From contig JBKPLP010000155.1 of assembly GCA_046731735.1 (NCBI GenBank), forward strand, positions 14,199 to 78,198: DNA of 64,000 bases. The letters are read 5' to 3'. Below, one piece after another: positions 25,916-57,752 of the stretch. Under the pieces are notes generated by a model, which made no database searches, had not been told where the DNA came from, and saw nothing but the letters and a program-made list of their open reading frames with translations. Position 1 is the stretch's first letter, and each line of letters starts with the position of its first letter. The translations under genes were made by a program, and so were the position numbers. Source of the stretch: Acidobacteriota bacterium (GTDB lineage Bacteria; Acidobacteriota; Vicinamibacteria; Vicinamibacterales; 2-12-FULL-66-21).

Positions 25916-25945
25916 TTTATACCCCACCTCAGGCCGGAATCGCAA
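25916..25945 (-). promoter_or_regulatory. candidate promoter TTGCGA-N18-TATAAA for the poly-Cys leader (near-leaderless)
   Basis: Minus strand reads TTGCGAttccggcctgaggtggggTATAAAcagcaaaATG. The -35 element lies in the last codons of thrC. Confidence 0.35.
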
Positions 25946-27254
25946 GATCGAGGTGCCTCCGCACCTGGTCATAATCGTTGGGCAGCTCGATGGGGCGGTT
26001 CGCCCGCCGCGACACGATCCCCTCCAGGGTGCCCGCGTGGTAGCCCGCCTTGAAATCCGTGAATTTCAGGCCGCTCGCGGTCGAAATCACCACCACCCGG
26101 TCGCTTGCCTTGATCTCGCCTCGTCCTGCGAGCTTGATCAGTGCGGCCAGCGCAACGCCGGTGTGCGGACACGCGAACATGCCGGTCTTGTCGGCATGAG
26201 CGACCGCGTCCGCAAGCTCCTGCTCGTTGGCCTGTTCGACTGTCCCGCCGGAGCGCTTCAGGGCGGCAATCGCCTTCTGCACGGAAACCGGGTTCCCGAT
26301 TTGAATCGCCGACGCGAGCGTCGGACGCGCGGTGACCGGCTTGAATTGCCAGCGATTCAGCGACGCCAGGTAAAGCGGGTTGGCCGCTTCGGCCTGCGCC
26401 GCGATCAGTCGCGGCACGCGCGCAACCAGGCCAAGGTCCCGCATCATCTCAAAGCCGGCGGCGAACGCGCTGATGTTTCCCAGGTTGCCCGCCGGGACGA
26501 TGACGACGTCCGGCACCTGCCAGTCGAACTGCTGGGCAATCTCGATGGCGACCGTCTTCTGCCCTTCGAGCCGCAGACTGTTCATCGAGTTCGCCAGGTA
26601 CAGCCCTTCGTCGTCGGCCAGCCGCTGGATGATCGCCATGCACCCGTCAAAATCCGTGTCGAGTGCGAAGACGACCGCTCCGTTGGCCAGGGGCTGGACC
26701 AGTTGCGCGACGGTCACTTTCCCCCGCGGCAGCACGACAATGGCGGGAATCTCCGCGGCGGCGGCGTACGCGGCAAGCGATGCCGACGTATCGCCCGTGG
26801 ACGCGCAGCCGACTGCGCGGATCTGCTTCCCCTGGGCCATCATCTGGCGGACCATGGACACGAGCACCGTCATCCCGAGGTCCTTGAACGATCCCGTGTG
26901 CGAGTTGCCACACAACTTGACCCAGACGTCCTTCAAGCCGATCGATCGGCCGAACGCGTCGGCGAGAAACAGATTCGTGCCCCCCTCATCCATCGAGACT
27001 ACGTTCTCATCTTCGATTTCCGGGCAGACCCACTCCTTCTTGCCCCAGACGCTCGATCCGTACGGCCATGCGGTGCGCTTGTACCGTTCATCGAAGAGAC
27101 GCATCCACGCCGCCGCGCTCCGGTCGCGGAGCGCGTCCAGGTCGTGAACGACCTCGAGCAGACCGCCGCAGGTCGGACAGCGGTAGATGACCGTGTCCAG
27201 CGAATACGACCCGGGACAGCCGGCGACGCAGCGGAACTCGGCGCGATAGCTCAC
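25929..27254 (-). CDS. thrC: threonine synthase
   Basis: 441 aa. N-terminal Zn-ribbon-like CxxC...CxxC and a PLP lysine context (HTGSFKDLG). Confidence 0.9.
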
Positions 27255-28579
27255 GCCGCGCTCCCCGGGGTGGCCGATGACAGCACGGGAAGCACGACTG
27301 GCGGCTCACCGTGAAAATCGCACTGGGACATTTCCTGGATCGCCCGATCGATCGCGGACGCCGGGGCCGGATCGAGGCTGACCACGAAGGGCCGGCGGCC
27401 GGCGGGAAACCCGGGCTCCTGAAGAATTGCGTCGATGTTGATGTCGTGGCGCGCGAAGACGGTCGCGAGCGCTGCGATGATTCCCGGTCGGTCCGCGACG
27501 GTGAAGCGCACGTAGAACGCGCTGGTGAAATCCGGCGACACGTCTGCCCGGTTCGCAGCCGCACGGGAGCTGAAGGGCACGGCTTCGCGCGCGATCGCGA
27601 GCAGGTCCGACATGACAGCCACGGCCGTCGGCTCTCCGCCCGCGCCAAGGCCCCCAAACGTCGTTTCGCCACCATACTGGCCGCGCAGGGTCACCAGGTT
27701 CTCGCTGCCGCGCACGCGCGCGAGCGGCGAATCGAGCGGCACGAGCGCCGGCCCGACCGCCGCGGTCAACACACGGGGATCCGCTGTCCGTTCGGCCCAC
27801 GCGACCTGCCGGATGGTGCAACCCATCTGCTGCGCGTAGACGAAGTCGACCGCGTCGATGACGTCGATGCGCCGCGACTGGATTGCACCCGCGGGCACGT
27901 GCGTCCGCAGCGCGATGTGAGCCAGAATCGCGAGCTTCGCCTGGGCGTCGAACCCTTCGATGTCCTGAGACGGATCGGCTTCGGCAAGCCCCAGCGCCTG
28001 GGCCTCCGCGAGCGCTTCCCAGAATGGCACGCGCTGCCGCTCCATGCGGCTCAGGATGTAGTTGCACGTGCCGTTGAGAATCCCGGCGACGCGGGTCAGC
28101 TTGTCCCCGGCGAGCCCGTGCTCAATCGCGCGGATCACCGGGACGCCGCCAGCGACCGCAGCCTCGAAGCGCACGTGCCGTTTCGATCGTGCCGCCTCTT
28201 CCAGTAACTCAGGACCGGCGTGAGCTATCACCTGTTTGTTGGCGGTGACGACCGACTTCCCTGCTCTCAGCGCCCGTCGGATCCACTCCTCGGCCGGCAT
28301 CCGTCCACCGATCAGCTCGACGAGGACGTCCACGTCGTCGTTCAGCACGTCGTCGATCCTGTCGGTCCAGCGGATGGAGTCGTCGAGCCAGTCGACGCGC
28401 TTGCGTTCGATACCGCGATTCAGAATCGCCACGAGCTGAAGTTCGGGCGGCGCGAGATCCTGCAGCAGCCGGGCCACGGATCGACCGACGGTACCGAACC
28501 CGGCGATCGCCACGCGGGTCCTCTGCGTAACCGGCTTCGTCGCGGCGGACGGGACTGTGGCTGCGGCGGGCGCGCTCAT
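27251..28579 (-). CDS. hom: homoserine dehydrogenase (with C-terminal ACT domain)
   Basis: GFGTVG NAD-binding motif, catalytic domain and ACT-like tail. 4-bp overlaps with both neighbours. Confidence 0.9.
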
Positions 28580-29964
28580 GCCTGCACCATAGGCGTCTGC
28601 GCGGCGTCGCGGCGGCGCGCACCTCCGAAGAACCAGTCGTGCAGCCGCGACACGGCAGGTATCGCCTGAGTCGCGTCGACGACGAACGACAGCGTCCGCT
28701 TACCGTCCGGTTGGGCAACGAGATGAACCTGCAAATCGCGCAGGGCGCCGGCCACATCCGCTGCCAGATGCCGATTCGCACTCAACCCTTCGCCCACCAC
28801 CGTCACCGTCGCAAGATCGTCGGTCACCCGGACGTCGGCAAATTTTCCAAGCGATCGGCGTAGTAGATCAAGCGTCGGCGCTGCCTGAACCGTGAACACG
28901 AGCCGGTTTCCGCACAGATCAGCGAGGACGGCCTCGACGTCCGCGAGTTCGAGCTCACCAAACACCCGCGATACGAACTCGTCGACGTCGGCGCGTTCGT
29001 GGGCGAGGACTTCGAACAGGATCGCGCCGTCGCGGCAGGCGAGACCGGCCACCGGCCGCGCGTCCTCCGCGGTTCGCGCGGCGCTGACGACGGTTCCGGA
29101 CACGTGCGGCCGTTGCGAGTTGCGGACGACAACGGGAATCGCGCAATCGACGGCTGGCGCGATCGTACCGGGGTGCAGCACCTTCGCGCCAAACGACGCG
29201 AGGTCGTGTGCTTCACCGTACGAAAGATGCGGTACGAGACGCGCATGGGGTACCAGGCGCGGGTCGGCGGTCATGATGCCGTCGACGTCGGTCCAGATCT
29301 GAATCTCGTCCGCGCCGAGGCAGGCACCGAACACCGCGGCGGAGCAGTCCGACCCGCCGCGCCCGAGCGTCGTCGTCACGCCCTTCGCATCGGATCCGAT
29401 GAAGCCGCCGAGGACCACGATATCGCCGCGATCGAGCTCGGGGCGCACGAGACGGACACAGGCTTCGCGTGTCGCGATGAGATCGGGAGCGGCGCCGCCG
29501 TGGTGGCTGTTCGTGCGCAGGACGTCCCGGGCATCGAGCCACGTGGCCGGCACGCCGCCATCGCGCAGCACTGCCGCCAGCAGCCGGCTGCTCCAGAGCT
29601 CTCCCGCTGCCGCCACCTCATCGACCGAGCGCGCGGACAGGCGCCCCGGCGCCGCTTCGAGGGTCGCGGCGACCTGCGCGGCAATCGCATAGAACTCGTG
29701 CTGGAGTGCCACCCGTGCCGTGCGTTCGCGAATCATCTCGGCCGCCGCGAGGTGCCGGCGCAACAGCAGGTCGAGGTTGCGCGGCGGCGGATTCCCCGGA
29801 ATCGTCGCGCCCGCAGCCGCCACGTTCAGCAGCGCGTCGGTCACACCGGCGAGCGCCGACACCACCACTAGGCGCGACCGTCGTTCGGCCGCGATGATCC
29901 CGGCCACCCGCCGAATCGATTCCACCTCGCCGACTGAGGTGCCGCCGAATTTCAGGACTACCAC
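28576..29964 (-). CDS. ask: aspartate kinase
   Basis: GTG start giving MVVLKFGGTSV, with RBS GAGGAG upstream. Amino-acid kinase domain plus ACT domains. Confidence 0.9.
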   Translation of the reverse strand: MVVLKFGGTSVGEVESIRRVAGIIAAERRSRLVVVSALAGVTDALLNVAAAGATIPGNPPPRNLDLLLRRHLAAAEMIRERTARVALQHEFYAIAAQVAATLEAAPGRLSARSVDEVAAAGELWSSRLLAAVLRDGGVPATWLDARDVLRTNSHHGGAAPDLIATREACVRLVRPELDRGDIVVLGGFIGSDAKGVTTTLGRGGSDCSAAVFGACLGADEIQIWTDVDGIMTADPRLVPHARLVPHLSYGEAHDLASFGAKVLHPGTIAPAVDCAIPVVVRNSQRPHVSGTVVSAARTAEDARPVAGLACRDGAILFEVLAHERADVDEFVSRVFGELELADVEAVLADLCGNRLVFTVQAAPTLDLLRRSLGKFADVRVTDDLATVTVVGEGLSANRHLAADVAGALRDLQVHLVAQPDGKRTLSFVVDATQAIPAVSRLHDWFFGGARRRDAAQTPMVQA

Positions 29965-30025: not shown

Positions 30026-30058
30026 AAAAAAAAACCCGCCGGCTGAGAGCCGGCGGGT
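30026..30058 (-). terminator. intrinsic terminator inside the ask 5' leader (attenuator)
   Basis: Minus strand reads ACCCGCCGGC-tctca-GCCGGCGGGT followed by T9, 61 nt upstream of the ask GTG. Confidence 0.75.
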
Positions 30059-30092
30059 TGGGGTGCGCAATGCCTTTAATTGGGCTGTTTCG

Positions 30093-30194
30093 TCAGGAAG
30101 CGCGTGCGCAAAGACCGCCGGCGTGGCGAATTCGAATGGTTCGAATTCGCATACACGTGCAACACATCGCCGTAGCCTTGGACTGGAACCGCAT
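30093..30194 (-). CDS. candidate leader ORF (33 aa, or 24 aa from an internal ATG)
   Basis: MRFQSKATAMCCTCMRIRTIRIRHAGGLCARAS. It contains the segment GCCGGCGGT, which mimics the terminator 3' arm. Weak translation signals. Confidence 0.3.
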   Translation of the reverse strand: MRFQSKATAMCCTCMRIRTIRIRHAGGLCARAS

Positions 30195-30209
30195 CGCTTC
30201 TGGCTGTCG

Positions 30210-30239
30210 AGTATAGGCGGCACCCCTGGACAGCGTCAA
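30210..30239 (-). promoter_or_regulatory. candidate sigma-70 promoter of the ask-hom-thrC leader (TTGACG-N18-TATACT)
   Basis: Minus strand reads cTTGACGctgtccaggggtgccgccTATACTcgacagcc. Confidence 0.45.
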
Positions 30240-30327
30240 GCCCAGGCCGTCATCCCATTAACTGATCTTATGAAGTTGAAAACATTATAAATTTGACTTC
30301 ACGACGCCCGGCCGTCACCATAACCAT

Positions 30328-30417
30328 ATGCGTGGACCGGTCATTCCGGGGATCGTCGTTGTCGGGGTCATCGGCCGTCTTACCGGCCGAATCCTGGCCC
30401 GATGTCCACACGAGTGA
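30328..30417 (+). CDS. candidate branched-chain amino acid leader peptide (29 aa)
   Basis: MRGPVIPGIVVVGVIGRLTGRILARCPHE: 5 Val, 4 Ile and 2 Leu, with the core IVVVGVI. The stop codon is embedded in the antiterminator segment. Confidence 0.6.
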   Translation: MRGPVIPGIVVVGVIGRLTGRILARCPHE

Positions 30418-30442
30418 CGGCGCAAGAAATCAACAGGCAGAC

Positions 30443-30480
30443 AGGCCGTCACTCGAAACCGGGCGACGGCCTTTTTGTTT
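30443..30480 (+). terminator. intrinsic terminator / attenuator upstream of pheA-ilv genes
   Basis: AGGCCGTC-(14-nt loop)-GACGGCCT followed by TTTTTGTTT. Confidence 0.65.
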
Positions 30481-30489
30481 CTGGAGCTA

Positions 30490-30595
30490 TAGGGCGGCAC
30501 GTCCGCCGCCCTAAGGCGGGGCATAAAGCCCCGCCTTATGAGAGCCGGTGTTGTAGGCCGGGGCGTTAGTTGTAGGCCGGGGCTTTAGCCCCGGC
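30490..30595. repeat. cluster of GC-rich REP-like hairpins
   Basis: Three hairpins: TAGGGCGGC-acgtcc-GCCGCCCTA, AAGGCGGGGC-ataaa-GCCCCGCCTT, and a direct repeat GTTGTAGGCCGGGGC x2 with GCCGGGGC-ttta-GCCCCGGC. The related copy is at 57688-57752. Confidence 0.8.
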
Positions 30596-30609
30596 GCCGA
30601 GGAGAGCCA

Positions 30610-31476
30610 GTGCGAGTCGCGTATCAAGGTGAACCGGGCGCGTTCAGCGAAGCGGCCGTTCTGCGGTTGCTGCCGGAGGCTGAGCCGCGTCCCTGCCCCA
30701 CGTTCGATGACGTGTTCGACGCGGTCAGCACCGGGACGGTGAACCTCGGCGTCGTCCCGATCGAGAATTCCATCGGCGGATCCATCCACCGCAATTACGA
30801 CCTCCTGGTCGAGCGGGAGCTGTCCATCGTCGGCGAGGTGCAGGTGCCCGTGGTGCACAACCTCCTCGCGCTGCCGGGAGTCGAGCTCGACGATGTGCGT
30901 CGGGTGTTGTCGCACCCGCAGGCGCTCGCCCAGTGCGCCCGCTTCCTCCGCGGCCTCGAACACGTCGAGGCGATTGCCACGTACGACACGGCAGGCAGCG
31001 CGAAGATGGTGCGCGACGAACAGCGCCGCGACACCGCGGCGATCGCTTCCGAGCGCGCCGGTCAGCTGTTTGGCCTCGACGCCGTCAAGACCGGCATCCA
31101 GGACTTCGACGACAACATCACACGGTTCCTGGCCATCTCGCGTCAGCGCGTTCCGCTCGGGGCGCCCAACAAGACCAGTCTCGTGTTCACGCTGAAGAGT
31201 GCGCCGGGAGCGCTCTTCAAGGCGCTGAGCGTGTTCGCGCTGCGCGACATCGATCTGTCGAAGCTCGAATCGCGCCCGGTGCCCGGACGCCCGTGGGAAT
31301 ACCTGTTCTACCTCGACGTCGCGGCGGCACGAGAGGACCTGCAGTGTGCGCGCGCCATGGTGCACCTCGCTGAATTCGCACCGTCGCTCCGGACGCTCGG
31401 ATCGTACCCGCGATGGCGCGAGCCCGACGAAGCGACGGAAACCCCGCGATCGAACCACGGAGGCGCCCGTGGGTGA
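30610..31476 (+). CDS. pheA: prephenate dehydratase (PDT + ACT)
   Basis: GTG start after [34 protein letters not shown] and ESRP motifs. Confidence 0.9.
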
Positions 31477-33160
31477 TCAGACGCCGCGCCCGTTGAAATG
31501 GCAGAGCGGTGGCATCACCGAAGGCGCGAGCCGGGCGCCGGCGCGCGCGATGCTTCACGCTGCGGGGTTCACGCGCGATGACCTCGCGAAGCCGCTCGTC
31601 GGCGTGGCGAACACCTGGATCGAAATCGGCCCGTGCAACTATCACCTGCGGGATCTCGCCGTGCGTGTCAAGGAAGGGATTCGCGAGGCCGGCGGCACGC
31701 CGATGGAGTTCAACACGGTCTCGATCTCCGACGGCATCACGATGGGATCCGCGGGCATGCGCACGTCGCTCGTCAGCCGCGAAGTGATCGCGGACAGCAT
31801 CGAGCTCGTCGCGCGCGGCAACCTGTTCGACGCGCTCGTCGTGCTGGTCGGCTGTGACAAGACCATCCCCGGCGCGGCAATGGCGCTCGCGCGGCTCGAC
31901 ATTCCCGGCGTTCTCCTCTACGGCGGGTCGATCGCTCCGGGCCGTTTTGCCAACCGTGACGTCACCATCCAGGACGTCTTCGAAGCGGTCGGCGCGCATG
32001 CGGCGGGCCGGCTGACCGACGCGCAGCTGTGTGACATCGAAGACAACGCGTGTCCGGGCGCCGGAGCCTGCGGCGGCCAGTTCACCGCGAACACCATGGC
32101 CACGGCGTGCGAGTTCCTCGGCCTCGCGGCAATGGGCAGCGGCGACGTTCCCGCGACCGACGCGGCAAAAAACGACGTGGCGCACAAGACGGGCGCGCTG
32201 GTCATGGACGTGCTGAAACGCGGCGCTCGCCCGTCCACAATCGTCACGCGTGAGGCGCTGGAAAACGCCATCGCGGCGGTCGCCGGCACCGGCGGCTCGA
32301 CCAACGCCGTTCTGCACCTCATCGCGATCGCACGCGAAGCGGGCGTCACGCTGCGGCTCGAGGACTTCGACCGGATCAGCGCGCGCACGCCGCTGTTCGC
32401 GGATCTCAAGCCGGGCGGGCGCTTCGTGGCCGTCGATCTCCACAAAGCGGGAGGCACGCGGATCGTTGCGAGCCGGCTGAAAGCGGCTGGCGCGCTGCAC
32501 GCGAACGCCATCACCGTCAGCGGCCGGACGATCGGCGAAGAGGCGGACGCCGCCGTGGAAACACCCGGCCAGCAGGTCGTTCGGCCCGTGCATCAGCCGC
32601 TGAAGTCATCCGGCGGGCTCGTGATCCTCAGAGGCAACCTCGCGCCCGAGGGGTGCGTGGTGAAGGTCGCGGGACACGACTTCGCGACTCATCGCGGTCC
32701 GGCGCGTGTGTTCGACAGCGAGGAAGACGCGTTCGAAGCCGTTCAGGCCGGGCGCATCAAGGCGGGCGACGTGGTCGTCATCCGCCACGAAGGGCCGAAA
32801 GGAGGCCCAGGGATGCGCGAGATGCTCGGGGTCACCGCAGCGATCGTCGGAGCCGGACTCGGTGAAACAGTCGCCCTCGTCACCGACGGACGTTTTTCGG
32901 GGGCGACCCATGGCCTCATGGCCGGACACGTCGCGCCCGAAGCCGCCGCAGGTGGCCCGATCGCCGCCGTGCGCGACGGCGACACGATCGTGTTCGACAT
33001 TCCCCGGCGCACGTTGAAAGTAGACATCAGCGACGCTGAGATCGGGGCGCGGCTGAAGACCTGCAAACCGCTGCCGCCGCGGTTCACGACCGGTGTCATG
33101 GCGAAATACGCGCGGCTGGTATCGTCCGCGGCTGAAGGCGCGGTGACGTCGGCGGTGTAA
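31469..33160 (+). CDS. ilvD: dihydroxy-acid dehydratase
   Basis: Trimmed to GTG 31469 (GGAGG lies 6 nt upstream), overlapping the pheA stop. Motifs [20 protein letters not shown] and GRFSG. Confidence 0.9.
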
Positions 33161-33210: not shown

Positions 33211-34923
<1,713 letters not shown>

Positions 34924-34934
34924 GGAGACACATC

Positions 34935-35487
34935 ATGAAGGTGCATACGTTTACCGTCTACGTCGAAGATCGACCCGGCGTGCTGAACCGCGTGTCGTCG
35001 CTCTTCCGACGGCGCGGATTCAACATCGTCTCCCTCGCGGTCGGCCACAGCGAAACCCCCGGCGTGTCGCGCATGACGCTCGTCGTCGAAACCGACTCCG
35101 GCGGCGCGCAGCGGATTGCCGCGCATCTCTACAAGCTGATCCACGTCATCCGCGTCGAGGACATCACCAATCGGCCGGCGGTCATCCGCGATCTCGCGCT
35201 CATCAAGGTGAGCGCCGATCGCGAACACCGCCCGTCGCTCATGCAGCTCGCCGAGGTCTTCGGGGCGCGCGTCGTCGACGTCACGCCGGAGTCGATCGTC
35301 ATCGAGATGGCCGGGTCGGAAGCCAAGATCGACGGGCTGCTCGATGTGCTCCGGCCGTACGGTGTGCTCGAGATGGTGCGCACGGGCCGCGTCGCGATGG
35401 CGCGAGGCGTCGGCAGCTCGCCCGCGAACGGCCGCGGCCCCACGGCCGCGCTGCCGGAAGAGGAATCGGGCGTGTCGTATTCGGTTT

Positions 35488-35489
<2 letters not shown>
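34935..35489 (+). CDS. ilvN: acetolactate synthase small (regulatory) subunit
   Basis: ACT domain MKVHTFTVYVEDRPGVLNRVSSLFRRRGFNI. Confidence 0.9.
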
Positions 35490-35537
<48 letters not shown>

Positions 35538-35552
35538 AATAACAATAACCAT

Positions 35553-35650
35553 TGACGGACAGCGAAGCCACCAACGAACAGCGCAGCTCCTAACGGACAG
35601 CGCAGTCCCTAACGAACAGCGAAGACACCATTAACGGACAAGTCACAACG
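35553..35650. repeat. 19-22-nt tandem repeat AACGRACAGCGMAG... x~4.5
   Basis: ACGGACAGCGAAGCCACCA / ACGAACAGCGCAGCTCCTA / ACGGACAGCGCAGTCCCTA / ACGAACAGCGAAGACACCATTA / ACGGACAAGTCACA. Confidence 0.85.
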
Positions 35651-35667
35651 AATTGAGGAGTTTGACA

Positions 35668-36687
35668 GTGCCAAAAATCTATTACGACGCCGATGCGGAT
35701 CTCGCGCTCATTCGCGGGCGCAAGGTTGCAATCCTCGGCTACGGATCGCAGGGGCACGCGCACGCGCTGAATCTGCGCGACAGCGGCGTCGACGTGCGCG
35801 TCGGGCTGCAGGCGTCGAGCAAATCGCGCGGCAAGGCGCAGGCCGACGGCCTGACCGTTACCGATCCGGCGTCGGCATCGGAGTGGGCCGACGTCATCAT
35901 GGTGCTCGTGCCCGACACCATCCAGGCGACGCTCTACCGCGACGCCATCAAGCCGCATCTGAAAGCAGGCAACACGTTGATGTTCGCGCACGGGTTCAAC
36001 GTCCGCTTCGGCACGCTCGATATTCCCAAGGATGTCGACGTCTCGATGATTGCGCCGAAGTCGCCGGGGCACCGCGTCCGCGAACTCTACCAGGAGGGTG
36101 CGGGCACGCCTGCGCTGCTGGCCGTCCACCAGGATGCCAGCGGGCAGGCCAAGCAGGTCGCGCTCGCCTACGCGAAAGGGATCGGCGTGACGCGGGCGGG
36201 CGTCATTGAGACGACGTTCGCCGAAGAAACGGAAACGGACCTGTTCGGCGAACAGGCTGTCCTGTGCGGCGGCGTCAGCGCCCTCGTCAAGGCCGGATTC
36301 GAAACGCTCGTCGAAGCGGGGTACCAGCCCGAGATCGCGTACTTCGAATGCCTTCACGAGCTGAAGCTGATCGTCGATCTGATGTACCAGGGGGGCCTGA
36401 ATTACATGCGTTACTCGGTCAGCGACACCGCGGAGCACGGAGACTATACCGGCGGCCCGCGCCTGATCAACGAGGAGACGAGGAACGAGATGCGCCGCAT
36501 GCTCAAGGAGATCCAGGACGGCACCTATGCGGCGAAGTGGATCGAGGAGGATCGCAAGGGACGGCCGTGGTTCAACGCCCAGCGGGAGCGCGAGCAGGGC
36601 CAACAGCTCGAAGAGGTCGGCGCCCGGCTGCGCGCGCTGATGCCCTTCCTGAAGCCCGTGAAGCACCGGCAGCCCGCGGGGGTTTAG
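35668..36687 (+). CDS. ilvC: ketol-acid reductoisomerase
   Basis: GTG 35668 is preferred (GAGGAG lies 7 nt upstream; ORF track lists TTG 35653). [15 protein letters not shown] motif. Confidence 0.92.
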
Positions 36688-36690
36688 AAT

Positions 36691-36781
36691 TCATCCCTAA
36701 TCCCTAATCCCTGATCGTGAATCCCTCATCGGGAACCGACGAGGATCAGATGCATGATTGACGATTGGGGATTAGGGATTG
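36691..36781. repeat. inverted pair of heptamer arrays (ATCCCTA)n ... (TAGGGAT)n forming a long hairpin
   Basis: TCATCCCTAATCCCTAATCCC (36691-36711) is complementary to GGGGATTAGGGATTGA (36767-36782). The inner part also pairs: CTGATC...GATCAG. Confidence 0.85.
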
Positions 36782-36797: not shown

Positions 36798-37751
36798 ATG
36801 GACCTGAGACAGCTCGAGATTCTGCGCGCGATCGCCGAAACCGGTTCCTTCACCGCGGCCGGCGCGCGCCTGCACGTCTCGCAGTCCGCAATCAGCCGTC
36901 AGGTTCTGCTCCTCGAGGAAGAATTCAAGGAACCGCTCTTTATCCGCTTCGGGCGGCGCATCCAGATCACGCCGACCGGAGAAACGCTGCTGCAGCTCAG
37001 CCACCGCGTGTTCGCCGACATCCGCGACACGTCGGAAAGCATCCTCGACACGAAGAAGAAACTCACCGGCACACTGCGCCTGGTTGGCGGCATGACGGTG
37101 TGTCTCTACGTGTTTCCGAGCCTGCTGAAGGAGTTCCGCCGCCAGCACCCCGACGTCGACATCAAGGTGATCACGGGTGGGACACCGCGGCTCATTCGCC
37201 AGCTCCGATCCGGGACCGCTGATCTGGGACTCCTGACGCTGCCGGTCGACGACAACGCACTGGTCGCCGAGCCGGTGATTCGTGAGGAGCTCCTGCTGGT
37301 CACTCCAGGGGGCCACCGCCTCGCGGGCAGCAAGGTCGTCTCCCCGAGCGCGCTCGTCCGGCAGCCGTTCATCTTGTTCGAAAGCGGGTCGAACACGCGG
37401 CGCGTCATCGACGAGTTCTTCGTCCGTGCAGACATCAAGCCACGCGTGGTCGCCGAGACCGAGAACGTAGAAATCATCAAGTCGATGGTTGCCTCGGGCC
37501 TCGGCATCAGCATCGTCCCCTTCCAGTCGGTTGCGCGCGAGACGCGCGGCGGGAGCCTGTCGGTCGCGCGTATCCAGGGAGAGACGATGGTGCGCGAGAC
37601 CGGCTGGGTCCACCTGCGCTCCGAACGAACGCCACGAATGGTGCGAGAGATGATGGATACGCTGACTCGCATCATGCCGCGCCTGAAGCTGTCGCAGCAG
37701 CCCGCCCACAAGCGCGCCTCCGTGCAGCACGCGATCGCGTCCGGCGAGTAG
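36798..37751 (+). CDS. LysR family transcriptional regulator
   Basis: N-terminal [39 protein letters not shown] plus a LysR substrate-binding domain. Confidence 0.88.
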
Positions 37752-46458: not shown

Positions 46459-46469
46459 CGCAGGGAACC

Positions 46470-46498
46470 AAAAAAAACGGCCGCCGTAACGCGGCCGT
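46470..46498 (-). terminator. intrinsic terminator of the 46579-47145 gene
   Basis: Minus strand reads ACGGCCGC-gttacg-GCGGCCGT followed by T8. Confidence 0.75.
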
Positions 46499-46508
46499 TT
46501 TCATTCCC

Positions 46509-46577
46509 ATCGTCAATCGACATTCAATCGTCAATCTGCAACCGGCATTGCACTCGCCAATCGGCAACCGGCAATCG
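46509..46577. repeat. degenerate heptamer array (TCGTCAA/TCAATCG/GCAACCG/GCAATCG...)
   Basis: Period-7 pattern read directly, immediately 3' of the 46579 gene stop. Confidence 0.7.
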
Positions 46578-57687: not shown

Positions 57688-57752
57688 TAGCCCCGGCTTT
57701 TGGCGGCCCATAACGGCCGCCCCACGAGTAGGCCGGGGCTTTATGCCCCGGC
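57688..57752. repeat. GC-rich REP-like hairpin cluster
   Basis: TAGCCCCGGC...GGCGGCC-cataac-GGCCGCC...GCCGGGGC-tttat-GCCCCGGC. The last hairpin overlaps the stop codon of the 57741 gene. Same family as 30576-30595. Confidence 0.8.

Follow-up and report, generated by a model that had tools for sequence, protein, structure and literature searches.

Results

A leader region upstream of pheA-ilvD-ilvBN-ilvC

We examined the region upstream of pheA in a 64,000-nucleotide (nt) stretch of contig JBKPLP010000155.1 from an Acidobacteriota bacterium (the window, to whose numbering all coordinates refer unless a relative is named), where a short open reading frame (ORF) is followed by mutually complementary RNA segments and a terminator. 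This region very probably acts as a ribosome-mediated leader-peptide transcription attenuator that controls pheA-ilvD-ilvBN-ilvC, in which a ribosome on the leader ORF would select between two alternative helices by occluding one of three RNA segments. An earlier note on the same DNA had proposed a leader-peptide attenuator that senses branched-chain amino acids (BCAAs) and is built from four segments; the conserved ORF, segments 2 to 4, and their covariation support this class. The features of the region, with the segment numbering of that note, are as follows.

30262 to 30293, + strand: AT-rich block CTTATGAAGTTGAAAACATTATAAAT, a candidate UP element or regulator site upstream of the -35 hexamer
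30294 to 30299, + strand: putative -35 hexamer TTGACT
30317 to 30322, + strand: putative -10-like hexamer CACCAT, after a 17-nt spacer
30328 to 30417, + strand: leader ORF of 29 codons plus UGA (30415-30417), MRGPVIPGIVVVGVIGRLTGRILARCPHE
30352 to 30372, + strand: putative regulatory codon run Ile9-Val-Val-Val-Gly-Val-Ile15 (ATC GTC GTT GTC GGG GTC ATC)
30354 to 30404, + strand: ORF-internal hairpin (-28.7 kcal/mol, z = -3.0), its 5' arm formed by the Val/Ile run
30411 to 30421, + strand: segment 2, CGAGUGACGGC, 5' strand of the antiterminator, which holds the leader stop codon
30443 to 30455, + strand: segment 3, the shared strand, pairing with segment 2 (through 30445-30455) or, as the 5' arm of the terminator, with segment 4
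30460 to 30472, + strand: segment 4, 3' arm of the terminator, covarying with segment 3
30473 to 30480, + strand: U-tract TTTTGTTT
30610 to 31476, + strand: pheA (prephenate dehydratase with ACT domain; PF00800, 1.3e-63), the first gene presumed to be regulated
31469 to 33160, + strand: ilvD (dihydroxy-acid dehydratase), starting at GTG 31469, which overlaps the pheA stop, or at TTG 31493
33211 to 34923 and 34935 to 35489, + strand: ilvB and ilvN, acetolactate synthase subunits
35653 to 36687, + strand: ilvC (ketol-acid reductoisomerase, by protein family assignment)

Depending on the ilvD start, pheA and ilvD overlap or are separated by a 16-nt gap. A simple scan of the + strand between 30480 and 37000 returned no consensus internal promoter and one terminator-like site, a weak one of 5 bp, and we infer that pheA to ilvC are co-transcribed, with ilvC probably the last gene of the transcription unit.

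The arrangement recurs in relatives

Scanning species-representative genomes with the PheA protein yielded 80 loci, numbered L001-L071 in Acidobacteriota (mostly Vicinamibacterales) and L072-L080 in Chloroflexota, which assigns the window to a Vicinamibacterales acidobacterium; the relatives are metagenome-assembled genomes. Upstream of each pheA, a script required a terminator of the form GGCC(A/G)TCA(T/C)CCG...TTTT, a segment 20-45 nt further upstream complementary to its 5' arm, and an ATG ORF of 17-50 codons with its stop near the 5' end of the complementary segment. Forty acidobacterial loci satisfied all three, and a covariance model trained on them also detected five loci that had been held out (L033, L036, L040, L051, and L069). 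The full arrangement of promoter, short ORF, stop in or beside segment 2, and terminator is present in ~44 of the 71 acidobacterial loci; the Chloroflexota pheA loci carry no such element. Within the window, the only strong match to the covariance model is 30407-30481. A 22.5-bit match at 46469-46534 on the minus strand was rejected as a second attenuator and is an ordinary gene-end terminator. L069 has kept the RNA motif without a leader ORF, together with two terminator-like hairpins 3' of the promoter (L069:3844-3978), and may be a decayed element. At L007, the module from segment 2 to the terminator is duplicated in tandem (L007:2017-2084 and 2183-2251), which places two terminators in series.

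The leader ORF is conserved in position and composition

The 29-residue peptide, described in the earlier note with 11 Val/Ile/Leu residues and the core IVVVGVI, proved correct in both content and coordinates (five Val, four Ile, and two Leu), and Val5-Ile6 (30340-30345) may add to the regulatory codon run. An ORF occupies the homologous position in the 40 aligned relatives; relative to L001, L002, and L064, its indels of 9 nt and 3 nt keep the frame, and a 1-nt indel in L002 is located 3' of the stop codon. The stop codon begins between -2 and +13 nt from the 5' end of segment 2 in 40 of 40 aligned members, and the placement of the stop inside segment 2, as first noted for the window, is conserved in ~40 relatives. 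Upstream of segment 2, the coding properties are all that is conserved across the family, RNA sequence and length being free to vary; the leader peptides likewise diverge strongly in sequence and share their composition.

This composition is distinctive. Against a background of 1063 short ATG ORFs, taken in all frames from the same loci, Val makes up 20.0% of the residues in the family leaders and 5.1% in the background ORFs, with residue enrichments reaching Mann-Whitney p values of ~1e-18 to 1e-22. The maximum number of Val, Ile, Thr, and Phe residues per 8-residue window averages 6.05 in the leaders versus 2.97 in the background (Mann-Whitney p = 2e-22). Codon choice differs as well: GTC and GTT account for 83% of Val codons in the leaders of the 40 aligned loci versus 47% in pheA, and T-ending codons are more frequent in leaders than in pheA (TTT 54% versus 21%, ATT 41% versus 26%, CTT 17% versus 5%), a bias that may reflect isoacceptor-specific or slowly decoded sensor codons or, equally, a constraint of RNA structure. 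Both the window and the family thus carry, in a short upstream ORF, codons for products of the pathway that is encoded downstream.

The promoter geometry suggests that this ORF is read from a leaderless or near-leaderless mRNA. In 36 of the 40 members, T[TG]GAC is separated by 17-18 nt from a downstream -10-like hexamer, a class recorded as ending in AT or CT and exemplified by CACCAT, TGTAAT, CAGAAT, TCTAAT, and TACAGT, with CAnnAT in L001-L004, L007, and L064. Of these 36 members with a recognizable promoter, 34 have a gap of 6-12 nt from this hexamer to the leader ATG (6 nt in the window and its closest relatives, 7 nt in L064). No Shine-Dalgarno core was found before the leader ATG of the window, and across the family such a core precedes 3 of 40 leaders versus 18 of 40 pheA starts. 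With an ATG 6 nt past the -10 hexamer and no Shine-Dalgarno core, transcription would therefore start at or next to A30328. The AT-rich block CTTATGAAGTTGAAAACATTATAAAT upstream of the -35 hexamer is conserved in L001-L007 and L064, and more distantly related loci carry a similar block, AAAGATTATCAAT.

Terminator and antiterminator covary on a common strand

The elements on which the earlier note had built its switch are placed correctly: GGCCGTC at 30373-30379 (its segment 1), TGACGGC at 30415-30421, AGGCCGTCA at 30443-30451, and GACGGCCT at 30465-30472, followed by TTTTGTTT. Its antiterminator, formed by segments 2 and 3, turned out to be longer than claimed, with 11 nt of 100% complementarity between 30411-30421 and 30445-30455, and its terminator, formed by segments 3 and 4, is conserved and covaries in ~40 relatives. 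The duplex of segments 2 and 3 (-23.5 kcal/mol) and the terminator hairpin (30443-30472; -21.5 kcal/mol) are mutually exclusive, and the terminator is an intrinsic one located between the leader ORF and pheA. Folding of 30300-30490 gave z = -4.5 versus dinucleotide shuffles. A scan of the 64 kb for a hairpin plus T-run returned nine sites, of which this intergenic region holds two, arranged back to back. A T-run follows the terminator in 40 of 40 aligned sequences.

We counted covariation on a 40-sequence MAFFT alignment (A1). In the terminator helix, 93.9% of cells are paired, and changes on both sides affect 6 pairs and 35 cells; the corresponding figures for the antiterminator helix are 84.1%, 7 pairs, and 35 cells. 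Neither covariation score was reached by any of 500 shuffles, and controls with slid helices paired in 24-60% of cells for the terminator and 20-56% for the antiterminator. Three-way changes link the two helices; for example, A/G in column 58 changes along with U/C in column 81 (terminator) and U/C in column 14 (antiterminator). As both helices covary on one common strand, both are selected for, which is the signature of a switch. Across the 40 loci, the enrichment of the BCAA codon run and the covariation of segments 2 to 4 bore out the earlier note, while pairing of its segment 1 stayed at chance; the ORF together with segments 2 to 4 exceeds chance.

The ORF could also be read as an independent gene for a small hydrophobic protein that ends at its own terminator, with a separate promoter for pheA-ilv within 30481-30609, a reading that would fit the hydrophobic peptide and the 129-nt spacer with several palindromes that separates the U-tract from the pheA start codon. 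We consider it extremely unlikely, given that the composition of the peptide is conserved and its sequence is not, that the terminator of many relatives ends 5-60 nt before the pheA start and leaves no room for a promoter, that a scan of 30481-30609 returned no consensus promoter, and that the antiterminator helix, for which a gene-end terminator has no need, covaries.

Some additional complementary copies occur nearby. A copy of GGCCGTCAC at 30310-30318, which pairs with segment 2 when the fold starts at 30300, was rejected as a functional segment because its place within the promoter spacer, 5' of the putative start, would leave it untranscribed and because it is not conserved in L001, L003, or L004; the 9-mer is no more frequent than chance. 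Likewise upstream of the putative start, two further copies of the segment-3 sequence ((C)AGGCCGTCA / CCGGCCGTCA) are located at 30243-30252 and 30308-30317, one beside the -35 hexamer of a divergent promoter and one in the promoter spacer. Neither is conserved in relatives, and the number of 9-mer copies does not exceed chance.

Ribosome position and the choice between helices

Equilibrium folding of the full leader under a ribosome mask always gave the terminator and could not discriminate between ribosome positions, and it was replaced by folds of truncated nascent RNA. At full length, the terminator state amounts to -75.0 kcal/mol versus -67.6 kcal/mol for the forced antiterminator, so the decision must be kinetic. 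We folded the nascent RNA to 30456, where segment 3 has emerged and segment 4 is still unmade, with a 30-nt ribosome mask centered on the A site. The duplex of segments 2 and 3 formed without a ribosome and with the A site at codons 9 to 22; moving the A site to codon 26 or to the stop codon blocked it. These masked folds agree with the proposal in the earlier note that a ribosome reaching the stop sits on segment 2. They do not support its proposal that a stalled ribosome must cover segment 1 to free segment 2, as the duplex with segment 3 formed whenever segment 2 was unoccluded.

We thus propose a three-segment occlusion model. From the sigma-70-like promoter (TTGACT, 17 nt, CACCAT), transcription would start at A30328, the first letter of the leader ATG, or at a neighboring nucleotide, and the leader ORF would be translated without a 5' untranslated region or Shine-Dalgarno sequence. 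With ample Val-tRNA and Ile-tRNA, the ribosome would run to the UGA at 30415 inside segment 2 and cover this segment as segment 3 emerges, which would allow the hairpin of segments 3 and 4 with its U-tract (30443-30480) to release the transcript. Under a shortage of Val or Ile, the ribosome would stall at codons 9-15 (30352-30372), ~40 nt upstream of segment 2, and the free segment 2 would form the 11-bp antiterminator with segment 3; no terminator would then form, and the polymerase would read into pheA-ilvD-ilvBN-ilvC. The hairpin at 30354-30404 may pause the polymerase until translation catches up.

No pairing between the ORF and segment 2 stands out as a protector

The classical four-segment attenuator, as drawn in the earlier note, would have segment 1 (30373-30379) protect segment 2, a stalled ribosome cover segment 1, and untranslated RNA superattenuate. 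The required 6-bp helix GCCGUC:GACGGC exists and is the best duplex between ORF and segment 2 in the window (-13.6 kcal/mol), GCCGUC also occurs within the Val runs of L001, L002, and L064, and the minimum-free-energy structure of the full leader pairs segment 2 with the upstream ORF (30337-30346) while the terminator is formed. Yet this duplex is no better than expected by chance: ORFs shuffled to preserve dinucleotides gave a mean of -13.0 kcal/mol (z = -0.3), the best duplex between ORF and segment 2 across the 40 loci has a mean z of -0.26 (p = 0.15-0.2), and its position relative to the codon run varies (before it in 15 loci, overlapping in 12, and after it in 13). Forcing 30374-30379 to pair with 30416-30421 in a fold of 30328-30425 gave -31.2 kcal/mol versus -48.1 kcal/mol unconstrained, a penalty of ~17 kcal/mol, and in the unconstrained fold segment 2 pairs with 30337-30346 at a probability above 0.8. 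Duplexes between ORF and segment 2 are always weaker than that between segments 2 and 3, which in the window is ~10 kcal/mol stronger than any of them. Furthermore, GGCCGTC forms an arm of an apical hairpin that is conserved, and in L002 and L064 this arm reads GGCCGG or GGCCGC, neither of which is complementary to segment 2. A protector or pause hairpin of the trp type, formed by segments 1 and 2, was thus not found, and we regard the four-segment reading as unlikely. An alternative segment 1 in any other stretch of the ORF was rejected as well, since the family-wide test showed no excess complementarity; a four-sequence RNAalifold run gave almost no covariation signal (a -0.5 kcal/mol term). 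The three-segment model differs from the four-segment one in its prediction for a loss of leader translation, which would cause read-through and not superattenuation.

The hairpin to which GGCCGTC belongs (30354-30404) contains it as the 5' arm of its apex, and the apical stem GGCCG...CGGCC is common to the window, L001, L002, and L064. Family-wide, the region from the codon run to segment 2 is overstructured (mean z = -1.49; Wilcoxon p = 6e-6). The hairpin ends short of segment 2 and is therefore no anti-antiterminator; a reasonable guess is that it serves as an RNA polymerase pause or synchronization element.

Sensor codons follow operon content

The gene order pheA-ilvD-ilvB-ilvN is found in most loci. 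At four attenuator loci (L047, L048, L050, and L071), pheA is instead followed by convergent or unrelated genes, without downstream ilv genes, and their leaders are rich in Phe, with 3-5 Phe in 8 residues: FRFFFFAG (MRSRRFRFFFFAGATG...) in L047, MFGRFGFFSG... in L048, ...VRFVFPFPG... in L050, and FRFYFFAFT (MRRGFRFYFFAFTTG...) in L071. Leaders of pheA-ilv operons have at most two Phe per 8 residues in 36 of 36 cases. L045 and L051, which are related to the pheA-only loci and have kept ilvD-ilvB, carry the mixed runs IGFIFTGTTG and GFVFTSITG. The codons in the leaders thus appear to track operon content.

This pattern also bears on the point left open by the earlier note, that pheA comes first in the operon of the window and its leader has no Phe codon. 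At least one Phe codon is present in 34 of the 40 leaders, usually abutting the Val run (VFTVVV, SFVVTVVV, IVFVVG), and the window is one of the 6 without; the absence of Phe is therefore peculiar to the lineage of the window and not to the family. Prephenate dehydratase expression in this organism would accordingly be expected to follow the supply of Val and Ile rather than Phe, and control by Phe presumably acts on the PheA enzyme via its ACT domain.

The agreement between codons and operon content also speaks to whether the ribosome sets the switch. Binding of a ligand, a protein, or a small RNA to the leader RNA could do so instead, with the ORF being incidental, as open frames arise easily in high-GC sequence, the leader region is highly structured, and its translation is deduced. 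We deem this very unlikely. What is conserved is the distance from the -10 hexamer to the ATG, indels that keep the frame, the stop in segment 2, and the Val/Ile/Thr/Phe run, whose amino acids follow operon content, and no Rfam riboswitch or T-box matched.

Several points weigh against a ribosome-mediated three-segment attenuator nonetheless. Everything functional that we propose is deduced from sequence. Untranslated RNA would default to antitermination, as the -23.5 kcal/mol of the duplex of segments 2 and 3 far exceeds any pairing of segments 1 and 2, and regulation would therefore need tight transcription-translation coupling; to our knowledge, neither such coupling nor leaderless translation has been established for Acidobacteria. 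The close relatives L005 and L006, and also L009, L015, and L017, have kept the promoter without leader ORF or terminator, so the element is dispensable. The loci are phylogenetically related and were treated as independent, such that the p values overstate independence, and the link between Phe-rich leaders and pheA-only loci comes from one clade of six loci and may represent few independent events. As the Val/Ile run forms a hairpin arm, Val richness and codon bias could partly be a constraint of RNA structure. Finally, Thr codons are plentiful in one subgroup (FTVVVTVTG) with no obvious link to the operon.

At the attenuator-less sites L005:3540-3710 and L006:1040-1200, the promoter block TATAA..TTGAC/TGGAC.. 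is kept, and the promoters of L009, L015, and L017 lie directly against the pheA ATG (~60 nt before pheA).

Further candidate leaders and neighboring features

A second, divergent candidate leader-peptide attenuator lies on the minus strand of the window (30033-30239), ahead of ask (28576-29964), hom (27251-28579), and a PALP enzyme gene (25929-27254). It comprises a promoter (TTGACG, 18 nt, TATACT; 30239-30210), the ORF MRFQSKATAMCCTCMRIRTIRIRHAGGLCARAS at ~30190-30089, and GCCGGCGG (30122-30115, the HAGG codons), which is complementary to the 5' arm of a strong terminator at 30059-30033 with a nine-T run. L001 and L064 share this ORF in the form ..TATCCMCMRIRTTRIRHAGGLCA.., looser versions of it are present in L003, L004, and L006, and the Thr, Ile, and Met codons of this candidate leader would suit a threonine-pathway operon.

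A different class of leader precedes pheA in other Acidobacteriota (L059:3500-3882, L061:3687-3945, and L070:3621-3855). In L061 and L070, the GTG start codon of its ORF lies 6-7 nt past a -10-like hexamer. The ORF encodes (V)TF..ARNFRxFNRGFNxPGGRxLAPA.., has Asn-Phe codon pairs at three places, and is followed by an GCCCGCCAG...CTGGCGGGC terminator, a tRNA-Asn(GTT) gene, and pheA. With its PGGR codons complementary to the terminator arm, this class may be an attenuator for the tRNA gene together with pheA.

Short repeats fill several spacers of the window (30490-30600, 35491-35537, 35540-35640, 36690-36780, and 57700-57750). They include palindromes with GTAGGCCGGGGC at 30553 and 30572 and also at 57728, ~7 copies of (GGTTCGC) in the ilvN-ilvC spacer, repeated ACGGACAGCG/ACGAACAGCG units, and CCCTAAT-type repeats 3' of ilvC. 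L002, L018, L051, and L053 have their own species-specific heptamer-like repeats at equivalent spacers. Directly 3' of ilvC lies a LysR-family regulator gene (36798-37751), with homologs near pheA(-ilv) in at least 11 relatives (L012, L020, L034, L037, L039, L041, L042, L047, L054, L055, and L071) at varying position and orientation; this regulator may form a second layer of control.

Discussion

The leaders of the Escherichia coli ilvGMEDA (ilvL) and ilvBN (ivbL) operons are classical BCAA attenuators, and the E. coli pheA leader (pheL) is an attenuator directly upstream of the prephenate dehydratase gene. The element described here resembles ilvL and ivbL in its short ORF with BCAA codons before ilv genes, its mutually exclusive terminator and antiterminator, and the decision by ribosome position, which we propose for the window as well. 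It differs from them in phylum (Acidobacteriota), in having pheA as the first gene, in having no Shine-Dalgarno sequence and probably a leaderless ORF, in lacking a supported protector formed by segments 1 and 2, and in showing no sequence or Rfam relationship. Of the likeness to enterobacterial leaders drawn in the earlier note, the BCAA leader-peptide attenuator stands, and the enterobacterial type does not, considering the absence of an Rfam leader match and the leaderless-like promoter geometry. At a cutoff as loose as E <= 10, Rfam still gave no match in 30250-30500, and in 16 related loci at gathering score it returned tRNA matches only, with no leader, riboswitch, or T-box family. Like pheL, the leader adjoins a prephenate dehydratase gene, and the Phe-rich leaders of L047, L048, L050, and L071 would be functional analogs of it; unlike pheL, the leader of the window has no Phe and would sense Val and Ile, its pheA lies within an ilv operon, and there is no sequence relationship.

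By analogy, the element would function most like the ilvB leaders of actinobacteria (PMC1262725). In Mycobacterium tuberculosis, the upstream ORF of ilvB1NC contains an LVVI run followed by a Rho-independent terminator, with support from SEnd-seq, ribosome profiling, and reporters, and a ribosome at the stop is modeled to mask ~26 nt and to block the antiterminator, which a stall at the regulatory codons permits (PMC13236596). The window shares the BCAA-rich ORF (IVVVGVI here) and, in our proposal, the same occlusion model; it belongs to another phylum with no evidence of homology, its operon begins with pheA-ilvD, and the working of its element is predicted from sequence. The ilvBNC leader of Corynebacterium glutamicum is a leaderless mRNA with three hairpins, the apex of the first being a proposed polymerase pause site (PMC11857589). 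Similarities to it are the putatively leaderless ORF, the succession of ORF-proximal, antiterminator, and terminator hairpins, and the BCAA control codons. The first hairpin there, which overlaps the antiterminator, serves as an anti-antiterminator, whereas 30354-30404 in the window is clear of 30411-30421, and the operon content differs.

Full-text literature searches returned no description of leader-peptide attenuation in Acidobacteria. A 2010 survey lists almost no predicted Acidobacteria attenuators with an assigned function (PMC2965389), and another survey gives, for Acidobacteria, only statistics on the distance from leader gene to structural gene (PMC4833913). The mechanism proposed here is a textbook one; what is new is the phylum and the pheA-ilv operon context, and the value of the finding lies in cross-phylum reach and evolvability rather than in a new principle. 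Acidobacteriota rank with the most abundant bacteria in soil, and little is known of their gene regulation. The ~44 natural variants, including attenuator-less and reprogrammed ones, offer a comparative test of the coevolution of sensor codons and operons. We see even odds that Vicinamibacteria carry a previously undescribed family of leaderless three-segment attenuators throughout the lineage, with Val/Ile/Thr codons for pheA-ilvD-ilvBN and Phe codons for a lone pheA, with sister elements on the divergent ask-hom-thrC operon (Thr, Ile, and Met in the leader), and with a related element on a tRNA-Asn-pheA unit (leader NFRxFNRGFN) in other Acidobacteriota. If this is true, a phylum whose 5' regulatory RNAs are essentially uncharacterized would turn out to use classical attenuation as a general and evolvable strategy.

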